Source: Planctomycetota bacterium
GTDB taxonomy: Bacteria > Planctomycetota > B15-G4 > JADJEK01
DNA: 29,333 nt
Reading direction: 5' to 3'
Assembly: GCA_044225365.1 (NCBI GenBank)
Contig: JBGAIQ010000063.1
Span: 1-29,333 of the forward strand
The notes beneath the pieces are model-generated. The model had not been told where the DNA came from. It did not search any database and was given only the letters and a program-made list of their open reading frames with translations. The translations under genes and the position numbers were made by a program. Numbering within the stretch: the first letter of the stretch is position 1; each line of letters opens with the position of its first letter. Positions 19,887 through 26,442 of the stretch are shown here, one piece after another.

Positions 19887-21791
19887 TCAGTGAGGGCGAC
19901 GCTTCGGGATCAGCGCGTTCCGCGGGCCGACCGGGTCGTCGGCGCCATCCTGGGAATACGCTCGGCGGATCGAGTTGACGAGGAGTTCGAACTGGACAGC
20001 CTGCGCCGAATGCGGCTGATCGAGGTCGACGGTCCCGCGGTAGTCCGTCGTACGGCGAAGGATGTAGAGCGCTGCTTCGCGCTGCGGCCGCGGCGCATCG
20101 TCCGCGCGCACCAGGGACAGACAACGCATCGCCACCGTGTTCGAACGAATGCGGATGAGTGCGTCGATGACGAGGGGGTCGAGCCGGCCGGTATCGAATC
20201 GCTCGATCAACCACGGCAGGTCGCGATCGCGCACCTTGGCCTCGACGATCGAGTCCCGGACGTCGTGATGCGAGTTCTTGAGCGCCGCCGCGATCGCGGC
20301 CTTGTGCTTGTTCCCCACGACGCTCGCGATCAGCTCGTCGCCGACACCGGTCACGTCGGTCAGATGCGTGAACTCACCTTGCCCGACGCGCGCGATCTCT
20401 TGGAACGCCTTCACGGCCTTGTCGACCTCGTCCTGCTGATAGCCGCCGCCGCTCTTGGCCACGCAGATCGTCGACACGAACGTGCGCCCCTTGCCCTTCT
20501 CGATCTGATTGCGCAACTCGACGTAGAGGCGCGACAGATCCTCCTTGTGAGGCGGAGCATCGCCGACGAGGAGCAACGCGTGATACGCGCTTTGTCGCCA
20601 GCCGAGTTCCTTGAACGCGACGTGGATCGCGTCATAGATCGCCTCGGGCGTGTCACCGCCGCCTCCGGCATCGAGCGACTCCAGGAAGTTCAGGATCTTG
20701 TATCGATCGTCCGAGAGCGGCGAGATCTTCGTGAGGTAGGCCTCACCCTGCTCGCGATCGCGATACGCGACCATGCCGATTCGCAGGTCGGGCACGAGCG
20801 CCGCCATGTTCGTGATGATCTCGTCGATCGTGTGCTTCGCGGACTCGATCAGCGAATCCATGCTCGACGTCGTGTCGATGAGGACGACGAGATCGAGGCC
20901 GCCGTCGCGGAACCCGGCGACCTTGCTCGCGAGTCCGCGATCCATCTGATCGAGGCCGATTCCGCGGCCTCGGCTCAGCCCTCCGCCGTGGCGGACGCGT
21001 GGGGATCCCATCCCGACGCCGCGACCCGCACCTGCGCCGAGGCCGATCGTCGGCAATGCGTTCTCGATTCCGGGAGGCGTCGAGGAGATCTCGGTGGTCG
21101 GCGTGGTCGGGAGAGCCGGGATCTCGGTCGAGTCCACTTCAGGTGCGACCACTTCGGCGGGCACCGAATCGACTCGCATGTCGGATGCGGCGGACGACGA
21201 GTCCCCTCGTTCTTCCACGCTCGACCCGCGCTCCGGCCGGACCGCGATGAGCGCTTCCGAGTCGTCCTGGACGAATTCGAGGCGCGGCTCGTAGAGGACG
21301 TAGAAGAGGATCGCGTGGAATGCGATCGAGATGAGCAGCCACGGAGCGTGATCGAGTTCCCGCTTCACGCGTCGCCAGAGACCGAGTTCACCGTAGAACG
21401 ACAGCTCGCGATGGAGGACTGCCGACTCGACTTCGCGGCGCTCGAGGCGCAACTCGATGTCGCCGATCCGAATCCGCTCGCCGCCGGAGAGCAGCGCGTT
21501 CTGGATCAGGCGATCGTTCACACGGACGGCAGCGCCGGGCATCGCCTTCAGGACGTAGCGGTCGCCGAGCTTCTCGAGCACGGCGTGACTCGGGCGCACC
21601 GAGTGATGCTGGATCTGGAGCACTGCCGTTGGATCGGAACCGATCGAGAGCATCTCGCGCGACAGCGGCAGCTCTCGCTGCTTCAACATCAACCGCCAGG
21701 CGATCGAATTGCCATCGCGCGCCGCGAGCGCGGCACGAATGCCACTGTCGCTGAACTCGGGACGAAGCGGTTGCGGGTTCACCTCAGCCAT
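19887..21791 (-). CDS. FHA-like domain - TM - vWA domain protein
   Basis: N-terminal FHA-like fold (LSIGSD...SVRPSHAVL...VRVND...LLSGGERIRIG), TM WLLISIAFHAILFYVLY, Gly-rich linker, and vWA with MIDAS LIDTTSSM, GGGDTPE, LVGDAPPH. Confidence 0.82.
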   Translation of the reverse strand: MAEVNPQPLRPEFSDSGIRAALAARDGNSIAWRLMLKQRELPLSREMLSIGSDPTAVLQIQHHSVRPSHAVLEKLGDRYVLKAMPGAAVRVNDRLIQNALLSGGERIRIGDIELRLERREVESAVLHRELSFYGELGLWRRVKRELDHAPWLLISIAFHAILFYVLYEPRLEFVQDDSEALIAVRPERGSSVEERGDSSSAASDMRVDSVPAEVVAPEVDSTEIPALPTTPTTEISSTPPGIENALPTIGLGAGAGRGVGMGSPRVRHGGGLSRGRGIGLDQMDRGLASKVAGFRDGGLDLVVLIDTTSSMDSLIESAKHTIDEIITNMAALVPDLRIGMVAYRDREQGEAYLTKISPLSDDRYKILNFLESLDAGGGGDTPEAIYDAIHVAFKELGWRQSAYHALLLVGDAPPHKEDLSRLYVELRNQIEKGKGRTFVSTICVAKSGGGYQQDEVDKAVKAFQEIARVGQGEFTHLTDVTGVGDELIASVVGNKHKAAIAAALKNSHHDVRDSIVEAKVRDRDLPWLIERFDTGRLDPLVIDALIRIRSNTVAMRCLSLVRADDAPRPQREAALYILRRTTDYRGTVDLDQPHSAQAVQFELLVNSIRRAYSQDGADDPVGPRNALIPKRRPH

Positions 21792-22722: not shown

Positions 22723-22844
22723 CGAGACTCCGGTGCGGGCGGCGAAGCCATGGCGGTCACGAGGCAGTATAGTGCCCCGCGGCCGTGCGACCAGTGCGGA
22801 GGAGAATCCTCCCTCCCGCACGATGAAGGATGAGGACCCCTCGC

Positions 22845-23402
22845 ATGGACGATCACGCGCCGCGCATCCTTGGCGGGGCTCTGAAGGGCCGGCGACTGCA
22901 CGTTGCGCGCGGCCGGACGACACGCCCACTCAAGGTCATGGCGCGACGGTCGCTGTTCGATTCGCTCCAGGCGCGGATCCCCGATTCCTCCGTCCTCGAC
23001 CTCTTCGCGGGCGCGGGAACGATTGGATTCGAGGCGGCGTCCCGCGGAGCGCGTCGCGTCGTCCTGGTCGAAGCGGCCCGGCCGGCGCTCGCAGCGCTCG
23101 CGGAATCGCAGCACGAATTCGCCCTCGAATCCGTCGTGACGATCGTCGCCGGGGACGCGATGCAGTTCGTCACGAATGCGAGCGAGCGGTTCGATTTCGT
23201 ATACGTCGGGCCCCCGTATCCACTCTTCCGCGGTGAATCCCGGCCCGATCTGCTCGCGATGCTGCGCCGACTTCCCGCGTTGCTCGCGGAATCCGGCCTG
23301 CTCGTCATCGAGACCCCCGCCGCCGAACGAGCACCCGAACTCGCGATTCCCCTCGCCCGCTCCCGCGAGTTCGGCGAGTCGACCCTCCACTTCTATTCCT
23401 GA
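22845..23402 (+). CDS. rsmD: RsmD-family methyltransferase (16S rRNA m2G966-like)
   Basis: [52 protein letters not shown]; ATG 22845 follows GAGGA (alternative start 22830). Confidence 0.85.
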
Positions 23403-23413
23403 ACTTCCCCCCG

Positions 23414-23574
23414 GGACCGCCGCGCTCCATTGCGGCTCCGTTTCTTATTCCGTTTCCTACTCCGGTTCCGGTTCCGGCGGACCGCCGCGCTCCATTGCGG
23501 CTCCGTTTCTAATTCCGTTTCCTACTCCGGTTCCGGTTCCGGTTCCGGCGGACCGCCGCGCTCCAGCGCGGCTC
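23414..23574 (+). repeat. Tandem array of REP-like hairpins separated by hexamer microsatellite
   Basis: GGACCGCCGCGCTCCA(TT/GC)GCGGCTC starts at 23414, 23479 and 23550 (periods 65 and 71 nt). The linkers are near-identical and differ mainly by one TTCCGG unit. Confidence 0.85.
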
Positions 23575-23647
23575 ATCTCCCAACGCCTCCTCCTCAAGTC
23601 TCACACCCCCTCCCCCGCCAAGACTCCCGTCCTGGAACCACCCCATC

Positions 23648-23675
23648 TCAAGTGGACTTCCAGGGTCGACGATAG
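23648..23675 (+). promoter_or_regulatory. Putative sigma28 (FliA/SigD/WhiG)-type promoter
   Basis: TCAA-N16-GACGATAG (TCAAG 23648-23652; GACGATAG 23668-23675) versus the consensus T(A/C)AA-N15/16-GCCGATAA; upstream of the FlgM-like ORF. Confidence 0.5.
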
Positions 23676-23867
23676 CGTCTTCGTCCCGCAGTCCGTCGAA
23701 TCAGGCGGTAACTCGACGCTCATCACCGGCGAAACGGTGAAACAGATTGCGATCCCTGGCCCCATCTTCTCGGGAGCTTCGATGCGAGCGCGCAGGCGCT
23801 TCGGCGGGGCGAACGGGCGGCGGGAGGGCCTGCCGAGCTTCGAACACACACCTTTGGAGTACACACC

Positions 23868-24038
23868 ATGAATGGCTCGCGCATTGGGGAATTCCTGTTT
23901 GGTTTTCCCGACCGGCCCCTCACCCGGGCCGAACGCATCGAAATCATCCGGCAGCGGATCAAAGACGAGAAATATCTGACTCAGGAGCGCCTGGACAAGG
24001 CTCTCGAGAAGATGCTCGACGAGATCCGCGATTCTTGA
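23868..24038 (+). CDS. 56-aa FlgM-like (anti-sigma28 C-terminal core) small protein
   Basis: Below the ORF-track cutoff. GGAG-N8-ATG; MNGSRIGEFLFGFPDRPLTRAERIEIIRQRIKDEKYLTQERLDKALEKMLDEIRDS. The pattern R-x-E-R-I-x-x-I-R-x-x-I-x-x-x-x-Y followed by an amphipathic helix matches the FlgM sigma-binding helices. Confidence 0.7.
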   Translation: MNGSRIGEFLFGFPDRPLTRAERIEIIRQRIKDEKYLTQERLDKALEKMLDEIRDS

Positions 24039-24086: not shown

Positions 24087-24584
24087 ATGAAGAAACTGGC
24101 AATCGCTCTCGTGTTCGCCGGCCTCGCCGCCGGCAGTATCGGAATCCAGGCGGATGGCAGGCCTCGTCCGGCGACGCACACCTCGCTCCTCGCGGTGCGT
24201 GCGCAGCCCGACGCCTGGCTCAATACGCCGATCACCTTCGAAGCGCGGTTCCACCGCCTCGGAGAGGTCTATCAACCGTTCTTCACGCCGTTCGACAGCT
24301 TCTCGTTCGGGAACTTCGCGGCGTGGGACGTGTCGCAGGACCTCAACTCGAAGGAAGGGTTCCTCGACCACTGCGCGACGCTGTACGTCGATCGCGAGAT
24401 GAAGGCGAGGACGATGCAGGACGTCGCCGAGCTCGCGACCTACGAGCGCTTCGAGGCGACGGGCGTCGTGCGCGCCGTGTTCGCCGGAAAGCCGTTCATC
24501 GAGATCACCAAGATCGAGCCCTGCGAATGGTGGAAGTTCTGGCTGAAGGCCGACGACTTCCGCCGCGAGGCCCTCGGTCACTGA
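24087..24584 (+). CDS. Secreted hypothetical protein, possible OB-fold
   Basis: GAGGA SD; signal peptide MKKLAIALVFAGLAAGSIGIQA; QPDAWLNTPITFEARF ... FEATGVVR..GKPFIEITKI beta-strand pattern. Confidence 0.75.
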   Translation: MKKLAIALVFAGLAAGSIGIQADGRPRPATHTSLLAVRAQPDAWLNTPITFEARFHRLGEVYQPFFTPFDSFSFGNFAAWDVSQDLNSKEGFLDHCATLYVDREMKARTMQDVAELATYERFEATGVVRAVFAGKPFIEITKIEPCEWWKFWLKADDFRREALGH

Positions 24585-24753: not shown

Positions 24754-26442
24754 ATGTTGCTCGATCTCGAAGTCGAAAATCTCGGCGTCCTGAAGCAGGT
24801 TCGCGCCAGCTTCGTGGACGGATTCAATGCGATCACCGGAGAGACCGGCGCCGGCAAGTCTCTCGTCCTGAAGGCGCTCGCCCTCCTCGGAGGCGACCGC
24901 GCCGACAAAACCCAGGTCCGCGACGGCGCGAACGAGGCGCGCATCAGCGGCTTGTTCCGAATCGATGACAAGAAGCGCGAGGAGATCGCGGAGCTCATCG
25001 CCCCGATCGAGATCGAGGACGACGAGATCCTCCTCACTCGCACCTTCTCGGTCGACGGACGCGGCCGGGCCTTCGCGAATGGCCGCTTGATCACGCAGGG
25101 AGTCCTGAAGGCCGTCGGCTCTCGGCTCGTCGACATCCTGGGCCAGGGCGATGCGCGGCTCCTCATGGAATCCGATCATCGCGCCCGCCTGCTCGATGCC
25201 TACGGAACGCTCTACGAGGACCATGCCCTCTACCTCGCGGCTCGCGAGCGGGCGCTCTCCCGACGCGAGCGGAGGGATCGACTCGTCAACGAATCGATGC
25301 AGCGGCGCCAGCGCGTCGACTATCTGCGCTACGTCCTCGCCGAGATCGCCGCGGTCGAGCCCAAGCCGGGCGAAGCCGCGCAGCTCACCGCCGAGCTCGA
25401 AGTCCTCGAAGCGGGTGAGGACCTCAGCGCTCTCTGCTCCGAGGGCGTCTTCTCGCTCTACGAAGCCGACTCCGCGATGACGACCCAGATCGAGAAGCTG
25501 CTGCGGCGAGTCCACGGATTGAAGGACGGCGCGCAGCAACTCCTCGCTCCCGCCCGAGCGGCGCTCGAGCGCGCAGCGGTCGAGATCACCGAAGCGGCTC
25601 GCGAACTCCGCTCCGCACAGGATTCGATCGCGAGCGATCCGCAGCGGCTCGAAGTCGTCAACTCTCGCCTCGACGCTCTCCGCAAGTTGATCGACCGCTT
25701 CGGCCCGACCGAGGAGCGGCTCCTCATGACTCGCGACGAATCCGAGAGCGAGTTGCGTGCGCTCGAGGCCGACGACGAGGACCAGGCCGCCGCCGATCGG
25801 GCGCTCGAGGAAGCCGTCGCGGAACTCGATGCGGCGGCGACGCGCCTCGACAAGAAGCGCCTCGCAGCGGGCGCCAAGCTCGCTCGCGCCGTCGAGAAAG
25901 AACTGCATCGCCTCGGCATGCCCTACGCTCGTTTCATCGTCTCACTCACGAAGAACCCTGGCGACGCGGTCTCCCGCGCCCAACTCACGGGAGCGTCGAA
26001 GGTCGAATTCCTGCTGCAGGCGAACCCCGGCCTCAAGGAACGTCCGCTCGAGGAAGTTGCGAGCGGCGGCGAAGCCGCGCGCATCGCGCTCGCGCTGTCC
26101 GCGACGCTCTCCGATGTCCTCGACGTCCCCTGCCTCGTGTTCGACGAGATCGAGTCCGGCATCGGTCAGCGCCTCGGTGACATCGTCGCCGATTGCCTCG
26201 CGGACATTGCGAAGAAGCGCCAGGTGATCGTCGTGAGTCATCTGCCGGCGGTCGCCGCCAAAGCACAGCGCCATCTCAGGATCGTGAAGAAGACACAGGC
26301 GGGCGCGACCGCTTCGATGCTCGAGACGCTCGAGGGCAGGGCGCGAGAGCTCGAGATCGCCGCGATGCTCCGCGGGGAGAGTCACGCCGAGAAGGCGCGA
26401 GGCACCGCCCGCGACATGCTCGCGAAGGATCATCCGGCGTGA
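24754..26442 (+). CDS. recN: DNA repair protein RecN
   Basis: ITGETGAGKS, coiled coil, ANPG, VASGGE, LVFDEIESG, QVIVVSHLP; 562 aa. Confidence 0.95.
   Translation: MLLDLEVENLGVLKQVRASFVDGFNAITGETGAGKSLVLKALALLGGDRADKTQVRDGANEARISGLFRIDDKKREEIAELIAPIEIEDDEILLTRTFSVDGRGRAFANGRLITQGVLKAVGSRLVDILGQGDARLLMESDHRARLLDAYGTLYEDHALYLAARERALSRRERRDRLVNESMQRRQRVDYLRYVLAEIAAVEPKPGEAAQLTAELEVLEAGEDLSALCSEGVFSLYEADSAMTTQIEKLLRRVHGLKDGAQQLLAPARAALERAAVEITEAARELRSAQDSIASDPQRLEVVNSRLDALRKLIDRFGPTEERLLMTRDESESELRALEADDEDQAAADRALEEAVAELDAAATRLDKKRLAAGAKLARAVEKELHRLGMPYARFIVSLTKNPGDAVSRAQLTGASKVEFLLQANPGLKERPLEEVASGGEAARIALALSATLSDVLDVPCLVFDEIESGIGQRLGDIVADCLADIAKKRQVIVVSHLPAVAAKAQRHLRIVKKTQAGATASMLETLEGRARELEIAAMLRGESHAEKARGTARDMLAKDHPA

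Follow-up and report, generated by a model that had tools for sequence, protein, structure and literature searches.

A truncated FlgM-family gene next to rsmD in a Planctomycetota bacterium: a candidate sigma-28 anti-sigma factor whose release may not require flagellar export

A short conserved gene between rsmD and recN

The window analysed in this study is a whole stretch of 29,333 nucleotides (nt) from a Planctomycetota bacterium (contig JBGAIQ010000063.1, positions 1 to 29,333). Between its rsmD-type methyltransferase gene and recN lies an open reading frame (ORF) of 56 amino acids (aa) on the forward strand (23868..24038, stop codon included), which we call mini-FlgM and which is supported by the ORF listing, by conservation and by matches to FlgM profiles. 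A preliminary description, made from the sequence of the window, had credited this ORF with a good Shine-Dalgarno sequence, and direct reading confirmed it: a GGAG at 23856..23859 (forward strand) stands 8 nt before the ATG at 23868, and GGAG is found at a similar distance in most of the related loci. Farther upstream, 221 nt before the ATG, there is a sigma-28-type promoter-like site that is conserved across loci (CTCAAG-N17-CGATAG, 23647..23675, forward strand).

ORFs were taken to start at the first ATG, GTG or TTG after a stop. The 52 open codons on the 5' side of the mini-FlgM ATG contain none of these triplets (the open frame is 108 aa), and in several relatives the frame upstream of the start closes within 7-16 codons. 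Because there is no common upstream start and the frame is closed in several relatives, an N-terminal extension of mini-FlgM can be excluded. Five close homologues show 73-88% identity to mini-FlgM and are all 56 aa long, and a match at an expect value (E) <= 0.01 was found in 26 of the 41 genomes of the order, the source genome counted. The ratio of non-synonymous to synonymous substitution rates (dN/dS, Nei-Gojobori method) was between 0 and 0.23 in 10 of 10 pairs, and 7 close pairs, when pooled, contained 24 synonymous versus 5 non-synonymous differences. The mini-FlgM ORF is a real gene, conserved beyond chance; the tests of conservation, dN/dS and synteny with rsmD to which the preliminary description pointed all came out in its favour.

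Homology to the sigma-28-binding domain of FlgM

A profile of 6 close homologues was searched against 1.84 billion representative proteins and matched 39 of them at E <= 1e-3. The short matches (33-64 aa) are members of the mini-FlgM family itself, and 9 proteins of 56-60 aa among the 39 score 13.2-23.3 bits on the Pfam FlgM model (PF04316), under its cut-off. Another 9 matches, of 81-112 aa, align through their C-terminus, and all 9 are above the Pfam cut-off (26.8-46.9 bits). Comparison of 27 mini-family members with these 9 Pfam-verified FlgMs by hhalign gave a probability of 98.7% and an E of 2.7e-16 over 51 columns, a comparison that is not fully independent, since the 9 canonical proteins were picked from matches to the mini family, while the Pfam cut-offs and the matches to solved structures are independent. 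In this alignment, residues 4-54 of mini-FlgM correspond to residues 42-92 of a 92-aa FlgM. The 9-FlgM profile also recovered the mini-FlgM ORF from the six-frame translation of the source genome with an E of 2.9e-14, the next match having an E of 1, and it matched the solved FlgMs 9wsf_B (E 2.8e-9) and 1rp3_B of Aquifex (E 7e-6). Across the 41 genomes of the order, PF04316 gave no match above its cut-off, and 5 of the 6 matches under it were the mini-FlgM gene. The nearest ESM Atlas clusters, taken as a lead only (score 0.87), are 67-70 aa long, are named 'FlgM domain-containing' and are commonest in Planctomycetota.

AlphaFold2 predicted three helices in mini-FlgM (residues 5-11, 20-32 and 39-55; mean predicted local distance difference test, pLDDT, 75.9). 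With this monomer model, Foldseek retrieved nothing at E <= 0.001, and a search of the PDB with the mini-family profiles gave no significant FlgM: the best match of one profile was the unrelated STH1 (E 0.11), and with another the FlgM entry 9wsf_B came up only at E 0.92. A search of a collection of genome contigs with a narrow family alignment yielded no related locus. Free FlgM is largely disordered, and the fold of the monomer may therefore be uninformative. Sigma-bound FlgM is described as extended and wrapping the sigma factor (PMC4598750). The profile comparisons indicate that mini-FlgM is a homologue of the C-terminal, sigma-28-binding domain of FlgM.

What mini-FlgM lacks is the N-terminal part. 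A region of ~40 N-terminal residues, with a conserved start, a segment of low complexity and an Asp-x-Val-Glu-x-Ser motif, is present in the 9 Pfam-verified FlgMs and in FlgM-like genes of 84-100 aa from the phylum but absent from mini-FlgM, which begins just past the position of this motif. In enterobacteria, the N-terminal part of FlgM directs its export through the flagellar type III apparatus. The preliminary description had seen a FlgM-like pattern in the C-terminal part of the ORF and had called the protein a core without the export half; profile methods bore out the first statement, and the second is right as anatomy.

A conserved sigma-28-type promoter

Exactly one CT[C/A]AAG-N17/18-CGAT site lies upstream of mini-FlgM, at a distance of 100-221 nt from its start, in 18 of the 20 loci (N17 in 12 loci and N18 in 6); loci L033 and L036 have none. 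The background of the strict motif in the source genome is 0.0023 per 260 nt. Between the two boxes the sequence shows no conservation, a pattern that points to selection acting on the boxes themselves. The same architecture precedes the orthologues linked to rsmD in families f55 and f51. The mini-FlgM gene thus lies behind a conserved promoter of predicted sigma-28 type.

The known sigma-28 consensus is TAAA-N15-GCCGATAA, and the motif of the flagellin genes resembles it: 24 of 30 upstream regions contain CTCAAGC-N13-nCCGAAyMA with a fixed spacing of N16 from the hexamer to the CGA. Compared with this flagellin class, the mini-FlgM promoter has a spacer one base longer and CGAT instead of CGAA. 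A third group of sites precedes pilM, which encodes a type IV pilus assembly protein (contig C51:23952-25079 in the source genome). Among 21 pilM loci of the order, 20 have a CT[C/A]AAG-N18-CGA[T/A] site (N17 in one of them) 30-95 nt before the start of the match, the distance being 60-95 nt in the loci of 19 relatives. The distribution of PilM is that of flagella (22 of the 41 genomes), which implies a joint loss of pilus and flagellum. For the order, a predicted sigma-28-type regulon thus emerges that includes flagellin (N16), the pilus operon (N18) and mini-FlgM (N17/18).

In the source genome, the pattern CTCAAG-N16-18-CGATA[G/T/A] occurs at 5 sites, which precede mini-FlgM, pilM, a REC-GGDEF gene, a TPR gene and ugd. 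The site of the REC-GGDEF gene, CTCAAG-N18-CGATAA at C95:389773-389802, stands directly before this response-regulator-GGDEF (diguanylate cyclase) gene. Two other lines were dropped. The -10 element (CGAT versus CGAA) does not separate the sigma paralogues, as pilM has CGAT in family f1 and CGAA in f4. A genome-wide definition of the regulon was abandoned because its gene calling by GC content at third codon positions covered only ~62% of the genome, so that many 'intergenic' sites were false.

Flagella and sigma-28 factors in the source genome and its order

The source genome (G000) is flagellated, with FlhA at C95:315278-317194 and flagellin at C95:324320-324736. It has three FliA/WhiG-family genes (254.6, 192.9 and 186.7 bits; NCBIfam cut-off 189.6), in agreement with the sigma-28-family factor that the preliminary description had supposed. 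The 186.7-bit sigma, just under the cut-off, is encoded directly beside flhF and flhA on C95, and the two others are at C89:27016-27681 and C75:2133-2801. A six-frame search with the canonical-FlgM profile detected mini-FlgM as the only FlgM-like gene of this genome. The window by itself gives the contrary impression as to flagella.

Three further observations concern this gene set. A modelled complex of the flhA-linked FliA (17-row alignment) with mini-FlgM (27-row alignment) scored 0.15 against a mark of 0.32, with controls not run, and speaks neither for nor against binding. A second full-length FHIPEP gene (C34:126348-128351, 597.6 bits) lies apart from the flagellar cluster of the source genome and could belong to a second type III system; in relatives, the second FHIPEP match, where listed, represents a fragment of a gene that is divided within a contig or between contigs. 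A 90-aa ORF (L007 1202-1474, reverse strand) follows immediately downstream of the flhA-linked fliA, with an overlap of 4 nt between its start and the fliA stop; no Pfam family matched it at E <= 0.1, and it could be either a small gene coupled to fliA or a spurious frame in high-GC DNA.

Within the order, FlhA was found in 22 of the 41 genomes (11/11 in f1, 1/1 in f2, 0/15 in f3, 8/8 in f4 and 1/5 in f5), and flagellin in the same 22. Two FliA/WhiG sigmas are present in all 41 genomes, the non-flagellated ones included, and all 19 genomes without FlhA have exactly two. The third sigma is found in the source genome and in 20 of 21 flagellated relatives, within ~2.5 kb of flhA in at least 15 of them. 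Mini-FlgM is present in 21 of 21 flagellated relatives versus 4 of the 19 genomes without FlhA or flagellin. These four carriers are G018, G021 and G024 (E from 4e-5 to 2.7e-8) and, with a weak match, G028 (E 0.0077); G018 and G024 have nearly the same sequence over the last 30 residues.

This distribution could be read in classical terms, namely that mini-FlgM inhibits the flagellar FliA only and is exported once the hook-basal body is complete, despite its short N-terminus, the orthologues in bacteria without flagella being relics or re-used genes. Its status as the sole FlgM-like gene in a flagellated genome and the contrast of 21/21 with 4/19 are in line with such a role, and a sigma-28-type promoter is what would be expected from the late-class flgM promoters described in Vibrio and Pseudomonas (PMC3930126). 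The secretion of the FlgM of Campylobacter jejuni, reported in the same source, points the same way. Nevertheless, the sigma-binding alignment starts at residue 4 and leaves almost no free N-terminus, the ~40 N-terminal residues of the canonical FlgMs compared are missing, and the near identity of the G018 and G024 C-termini does not look like decay. We therefore consider the classical explanation unlikely.

Orthologues in genomes without a detected export gate

To follow the family beyond the order, a phylum sample of 151 genomes was used, in which the tables of family-profile matches and of FlhA were compared by hand. The mini-family profile matched 67 of the 151 genomes at E <= 1e-3, and FlhA was found in 81. 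Both were present in 42 genomes, a profile match without FlhA in 25, FlhA without a match in 39 and neither in 45. Many of the 67 matches are FlgMs of ordinary length, and the match adjoins rsmD in 13 of the 67 genomes. Six of these 13 genomes are FlhA-positive (G000, G002, G003, G081, G107 and G131). In the other seven, which are 91-94% complete, FlhA was not found; they belong to f55 (four genomes of four genera), f59 (two) and f47 (one). In five of the FlhA-negative genomes (G096, G120, G144, G164 and G126), flagellin and FlhB were not found either.

The orthologues of f55 have one conserved 71-aa frame in the pdxJ-rsmD setting in four genera, and all four loci have CTCAAGT...CGATAG ~70 nt before the start. 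The shared frame and promoter indicate that these genes are not decaying, which counts against regarding them as relics of a classical FlgM. Of six of these small proteins linked to rsmD, five have Pfam FlgM as their best-scoring family (25.7, 25.0, 23.0, 18.4 and 18.3 bits; cut-off 25). Three FliA_WhiG-family matches of at least 155 bits are present in each of the five genomes checked, four of f55 and one of f47 (G083); the 189.6-bit cut-off is passed by all three sigmas in f55 and by one of three in G083. In total, sigma-28-family genes were present in all 46 genomes in which they were looked for, and the position of a FlgM-like gene next to rsmD is conserved across at least six families.

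These findings indicate that a predicted FlgM-domain protein with a sigma-28-type promoter is conserved in bacteria in which no flagellar export gate was found. The preliminary description had spoken of a flagellum-independent switch. For the source genome this is not supported in that form, since the genome is flagellated and the gene follows flagella in the order (21/21 versus 4/19), but at the level of the family a flagellum-independent role is plausible in view of the rsmD-linked orthologues without FlhA.

Proposed mechanism

We lean, with only slightly more confidence than doubt, to the explanation that mini-FlgM is an N-terminally truncated anti-sigma factor of the FlgM family, which acts in a sigma-28 feedback loop and whose release does not obligatorily pass through flagellar export. 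On this explanation, mini-FlgM would retain the three helices matching the sigma-28-binding domain and would have lost the N-terminal part of ~40 residues. The conserved promoter suggests that a sigma-28-family holoenzyme makes its own inhibitor, giving negative feedback, and homology suggests that mini-FlgM would wrap and sequester one or more sigma-28-family factors. Its targets probably include the FliA linked to flhA and flhF, because this flagellated genome has no other FlgM-like gene. Release would not have to be tied to export, because the export half is missing and orthologues with the same promoter persist without an export gate; candidate signals would be titration, proteolysis or a binding partner, e.g. 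FlhA through its cytoplasmic domain (FlhA-C). One of the two universal sigma-28 paralogues is probably a further target of mini-FlgM, or was its original one. Both the binding to a sigma-28-family factor and the non-secretion are what we infer from sequence.

Several results weigh against this explanation. First, direct Pfam and NCBIfam scans of the 56-aa protein gave no family at E <= 10, and a six-frame PF04316 scan of the source genome gave 4 weak matches, all within large unrelated frames, the mini-FlgM ORF not being among them at E <= 10. The Pfam comparison envisaged in the preliminary description thus had a divided outcome, the direct scan being negative and the profile-profile comparison positive, and the latter is subject to the partial dependence mentioned above. 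Second, a weight matrix derived from flagellin promoters reached 12 bits at no site on the contig of the window when its spacing was fixed, and with variable spacing it gave the mini-FlgM site 2.9 bits, within the background (mean 0.3, 95th percentile 6.8); the mini-FlgM motif was recognised from the pattern common to the loci and not from a matrix score. Moreover, the 5 sites of the source genome compare with ~2.8 expected by estimate, so the case for the promoter rests on conservation across loci and not on this genome alone. Third, family f3 is without mini-FlgM in 14 of 15 genomes (the remaining one has a weak match, E 0.0077) and yet keeps both universal sigma-28 paralogues; because of this, these paralogues can evidently work without mini-FlgM. 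Fourth, a short FlgM can still be exported, and because the C. jejuni FlgM is reported to be secreted (PMC3930126), truncation alone is no proof of non-secretion.

A different assignment of the target, the strict reading of the preliminary description, is that mini-FlgM serves solely as anti-sigma to a non-flagellar sigma-28 paralogue, one of the two universal ones, and not to the flagellar FliA, with a cytoplasmic release signal. The rsmD-linked orthologues of FlhA-negative genomes, with three FliA_WhiG matches in each of the five checked, would suit this idea, as would the promoter of the non-flagellated families, where no flhA-linked FliA can read it. The N17/N18 spacer of mini-FlgM is also like that of pilM (N18 in 19 of 20 sites) and unlike that of flagellin (N16 in 24 of 24), and non-flagellar sigma-28 regulons, including type IV pili in Rubrobacter, are reported from Actinomycetota (PMC13595943). 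On the other hand, f3 has both universal paralogues and lacks the gene almost throughout, and the flagellar FliA would be left with no detectable anti-sigma. Any pairing of spacer classes with sigmas would be conjectural, and the -10 element cannot be used to tell the classes apart, since its flavour (CGAT or CGAA) differs from family to family for pilM. An exclusive non-flagellar target accordingly appears improbable to us.

A more specific proposal, which we put forward tentatively and regard as rather doubtful, is that in this phylum the mini-FlgM beside rsmD may act as a cytoplasmic brake on a sigma-28 paralogue unconnected with the flagellum. This paralogue would drive a programme of motility or attachment, made up of the pilM operon, the REC-GGDEF cyclase and the brake itself, from promoters with a spacer 1-2 bases longer than that of the flagellin class. 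No export gate would be needed for such a circuit, as in f55, f59 and f47.

The neighbourhood of mini-FlgM

The rsmD-type 16S rRNA methyltransferase gene (Cons_hypoth95, Pfam PF03602, 124.4 bits) is located at 22830..23402 on the forward strand. Downstream of mini-FlgM, 49 nt after its stop, a gene for a 165-aa, probably secreted protein with a modelled OB fold follows on the same strand (24087..24584), and the downstream flank is formed by recN (24754..26442, forward strand), identified by Pfam SMC_N and by synteny. The order pdxJ / rsmD / mini-FlgM / 165-aa gene / recN is kept in nearly all of the 20 loci. By tblastn, rsmD is upstream in the same orientation in 19 of 20 loci, the exception, L020, being cut by a contig end, and the 165-aa gene follows mini-FlgM in 18 of 20 (L017-L036, with L017 as the locus of the window). 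A gene for a protein with FHA and von Willebrand A domains (19887-21791, reverse strand) stands beside pdxJ and rsmD. It adjoins them also in a genome of a distant family (G083, L110 1304-3166, reverse strand); because of this, the conserved neighbourhood reaches beyond rsmD. The statement that mini-FlgM lies outside any flagellar locus is upheld, as the gene sits in a conserved pdxJ-rsmD-X-recN setting away from the flagellar clusters.

The 165-aa protein has no Pfam or NCBIfam family. Its N-terminus is hydrophobic and, by eye, signal-peptide-like, with a pLDDT below 50 for the first 18 residues, and AlphaFold2 models its core, with a pLDDT above 90, as an OB fold, structure comparison giving a Z of 10.9 with 4gn3_B and of 9.2 with YgiW (1nnx_A), a periplasmic protein. 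The distribution of its gene is that of FlhA and flagellin (22/41: f1 11/11, f2 1/1, f3 0/15, f4 8/8 and f5 1/5), and it is absent from the non-flagellated loci of the order that retain mini-FlgM; wherever it occurs, it stands immediately behind mini-FlgM. The 165-aa gene is probably in one transcription unit with mini-FlgM, and its product may be an unrecognised envelope protein associated with the flagellum or the pilus. Mini-FlgM and the 165-aa gene form a small motility-linked island amid housekeeping genes. The earlier statement that the window has no flagellar or chemotaxis gene consequently holds for the 5 ORFs scanned with Pfam but needs qualification for the gene next to mini-FlgM, which tracks flagellated genomes exactly; this tracking is a further point in favour of a classical, flagellar FlgM.

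The place beside rsmD, kept in at least six families, also invites the view that mini-FlgM is a small helical protein derived from FlgM that is no longer an anti-sigma and has another role, e.g. one tied to rsmD, recN or the OB-fold neighbour. The lack of a direct Pfam match and the purely predicted nature of sigma binding would be compatible with it. However, the conserved columns are those of the sigma-binding domain of FlgM, a conserved sigma-28-type promoter stands in front, and sigma-28-family genes occur in all 46 genomes looked at. We judge a role unrelated to sigma factors to be very improbable.

The DNA between rsmD and mini-FlgM has features of its own. The spacer contains a tandem duplication of 65 bp at 23414-23542 (2.0 copies, 98% matches), because of which it is 465 nt long versus ~150-190 nt in relatives, and a weaker 23-bp repeat is present at 23576-23628. 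Immediately before the start codon, the stretch 23835-23867 and its counterparts in L018-L032 have in common, across the genera of f1, a CTCGAGC or CCGAGC, a CACAC-rich run and TGGAG. This shared leader of 30-45 nt suggests a conserved element, e.g. a protein- or RNA-binding site, for which a CsrA-type site was considered.

Known systems and significance

The canonical FlgM (PF04316), solved for Aquifex aeolicus with sigma-28 (PDB 1rp3/1sc5), has a C-terminal domain homologous to mini-FlgM. The two are alike in their predicted helices, in the presence of a sigma-28-family partner in the genome and in the sigma-28-type promoter. They differ in length (56 aa for mini-FlgM versus 81-112 aa for the Pfam-verified FlgMs and 88-111 aa for two solved FlgMs), and mini-FlgM is also unlike canonical FlgM in that the first ~40 residues are missing, the gene lies between rsmD and recN, some orthologues occur without flagella, and the score is under the Pfam threshold.

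Short FlgMs are also known from Helicobacter pylori (~67 aa, without the N-terminal part) and from C. jejuni (~65 aa). The H. pylori FlgM (HP1122) needed a domain-targeted search to be found (PMC2864241), and its inhibition is described as being relieved via the cytoplasmic domain of FlhA and not by export (PMC3930126, citing Rust et al. 2009). The FlgM of H. pylori, a flagellated bacterium, acts within the flagellar hierarchy, whereas mini-FlgM has orthologues without an export gate and coexists with three sigma-28 paralogues. C. jejuni is a flagellate with a sigma-28 late regulon, in which respect its FlgM is comparable to mini-FlgM, but this FlgM is reported to be secreted through the flagellum (PMC3930126), which illustrates that shortness alone does not exclude export. 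Another parallel is the WhiG-RsiG pair of Streptomyces and other Actinomycetota, described as a non-flagellar sigma-28-family factor with a cytoplasmic, non-exported anti-sigma (PMC13595943). RsiG is armed by cyclic di-GMP and does not belong to the FlgM family, whereas the candidate anti-sigma described here is derived from FlgM.

Part of this is already known, as an automatic FlgM-domain name is attached to some database clusters. In the 41 genomes of the order, the mini-FlgM gene is not called by curated models, and our literature searches, judged from their listings, found no paper on FlgM in Planctomycetes. FlgM is the textbook anti-sigma that is inactivated by export through the very structure whose assembly it monitors. 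If the preferred explanation of a truncated anti-sigma with export-independent release is true, the sigma-28/FlgM pair would be re-usable as a plain cytoplasmic switch, with FlgM uncoupled from secretion. Planctomycetes have a dimorphic life cycle that leads from swimming to sessile cells. For these bacteria, mini-FlgM provides a concrete candidate for a piece that had been missing, and the promoter sites described here offer testable promoter classes for the three sigma-28 paralogues in the phylum.

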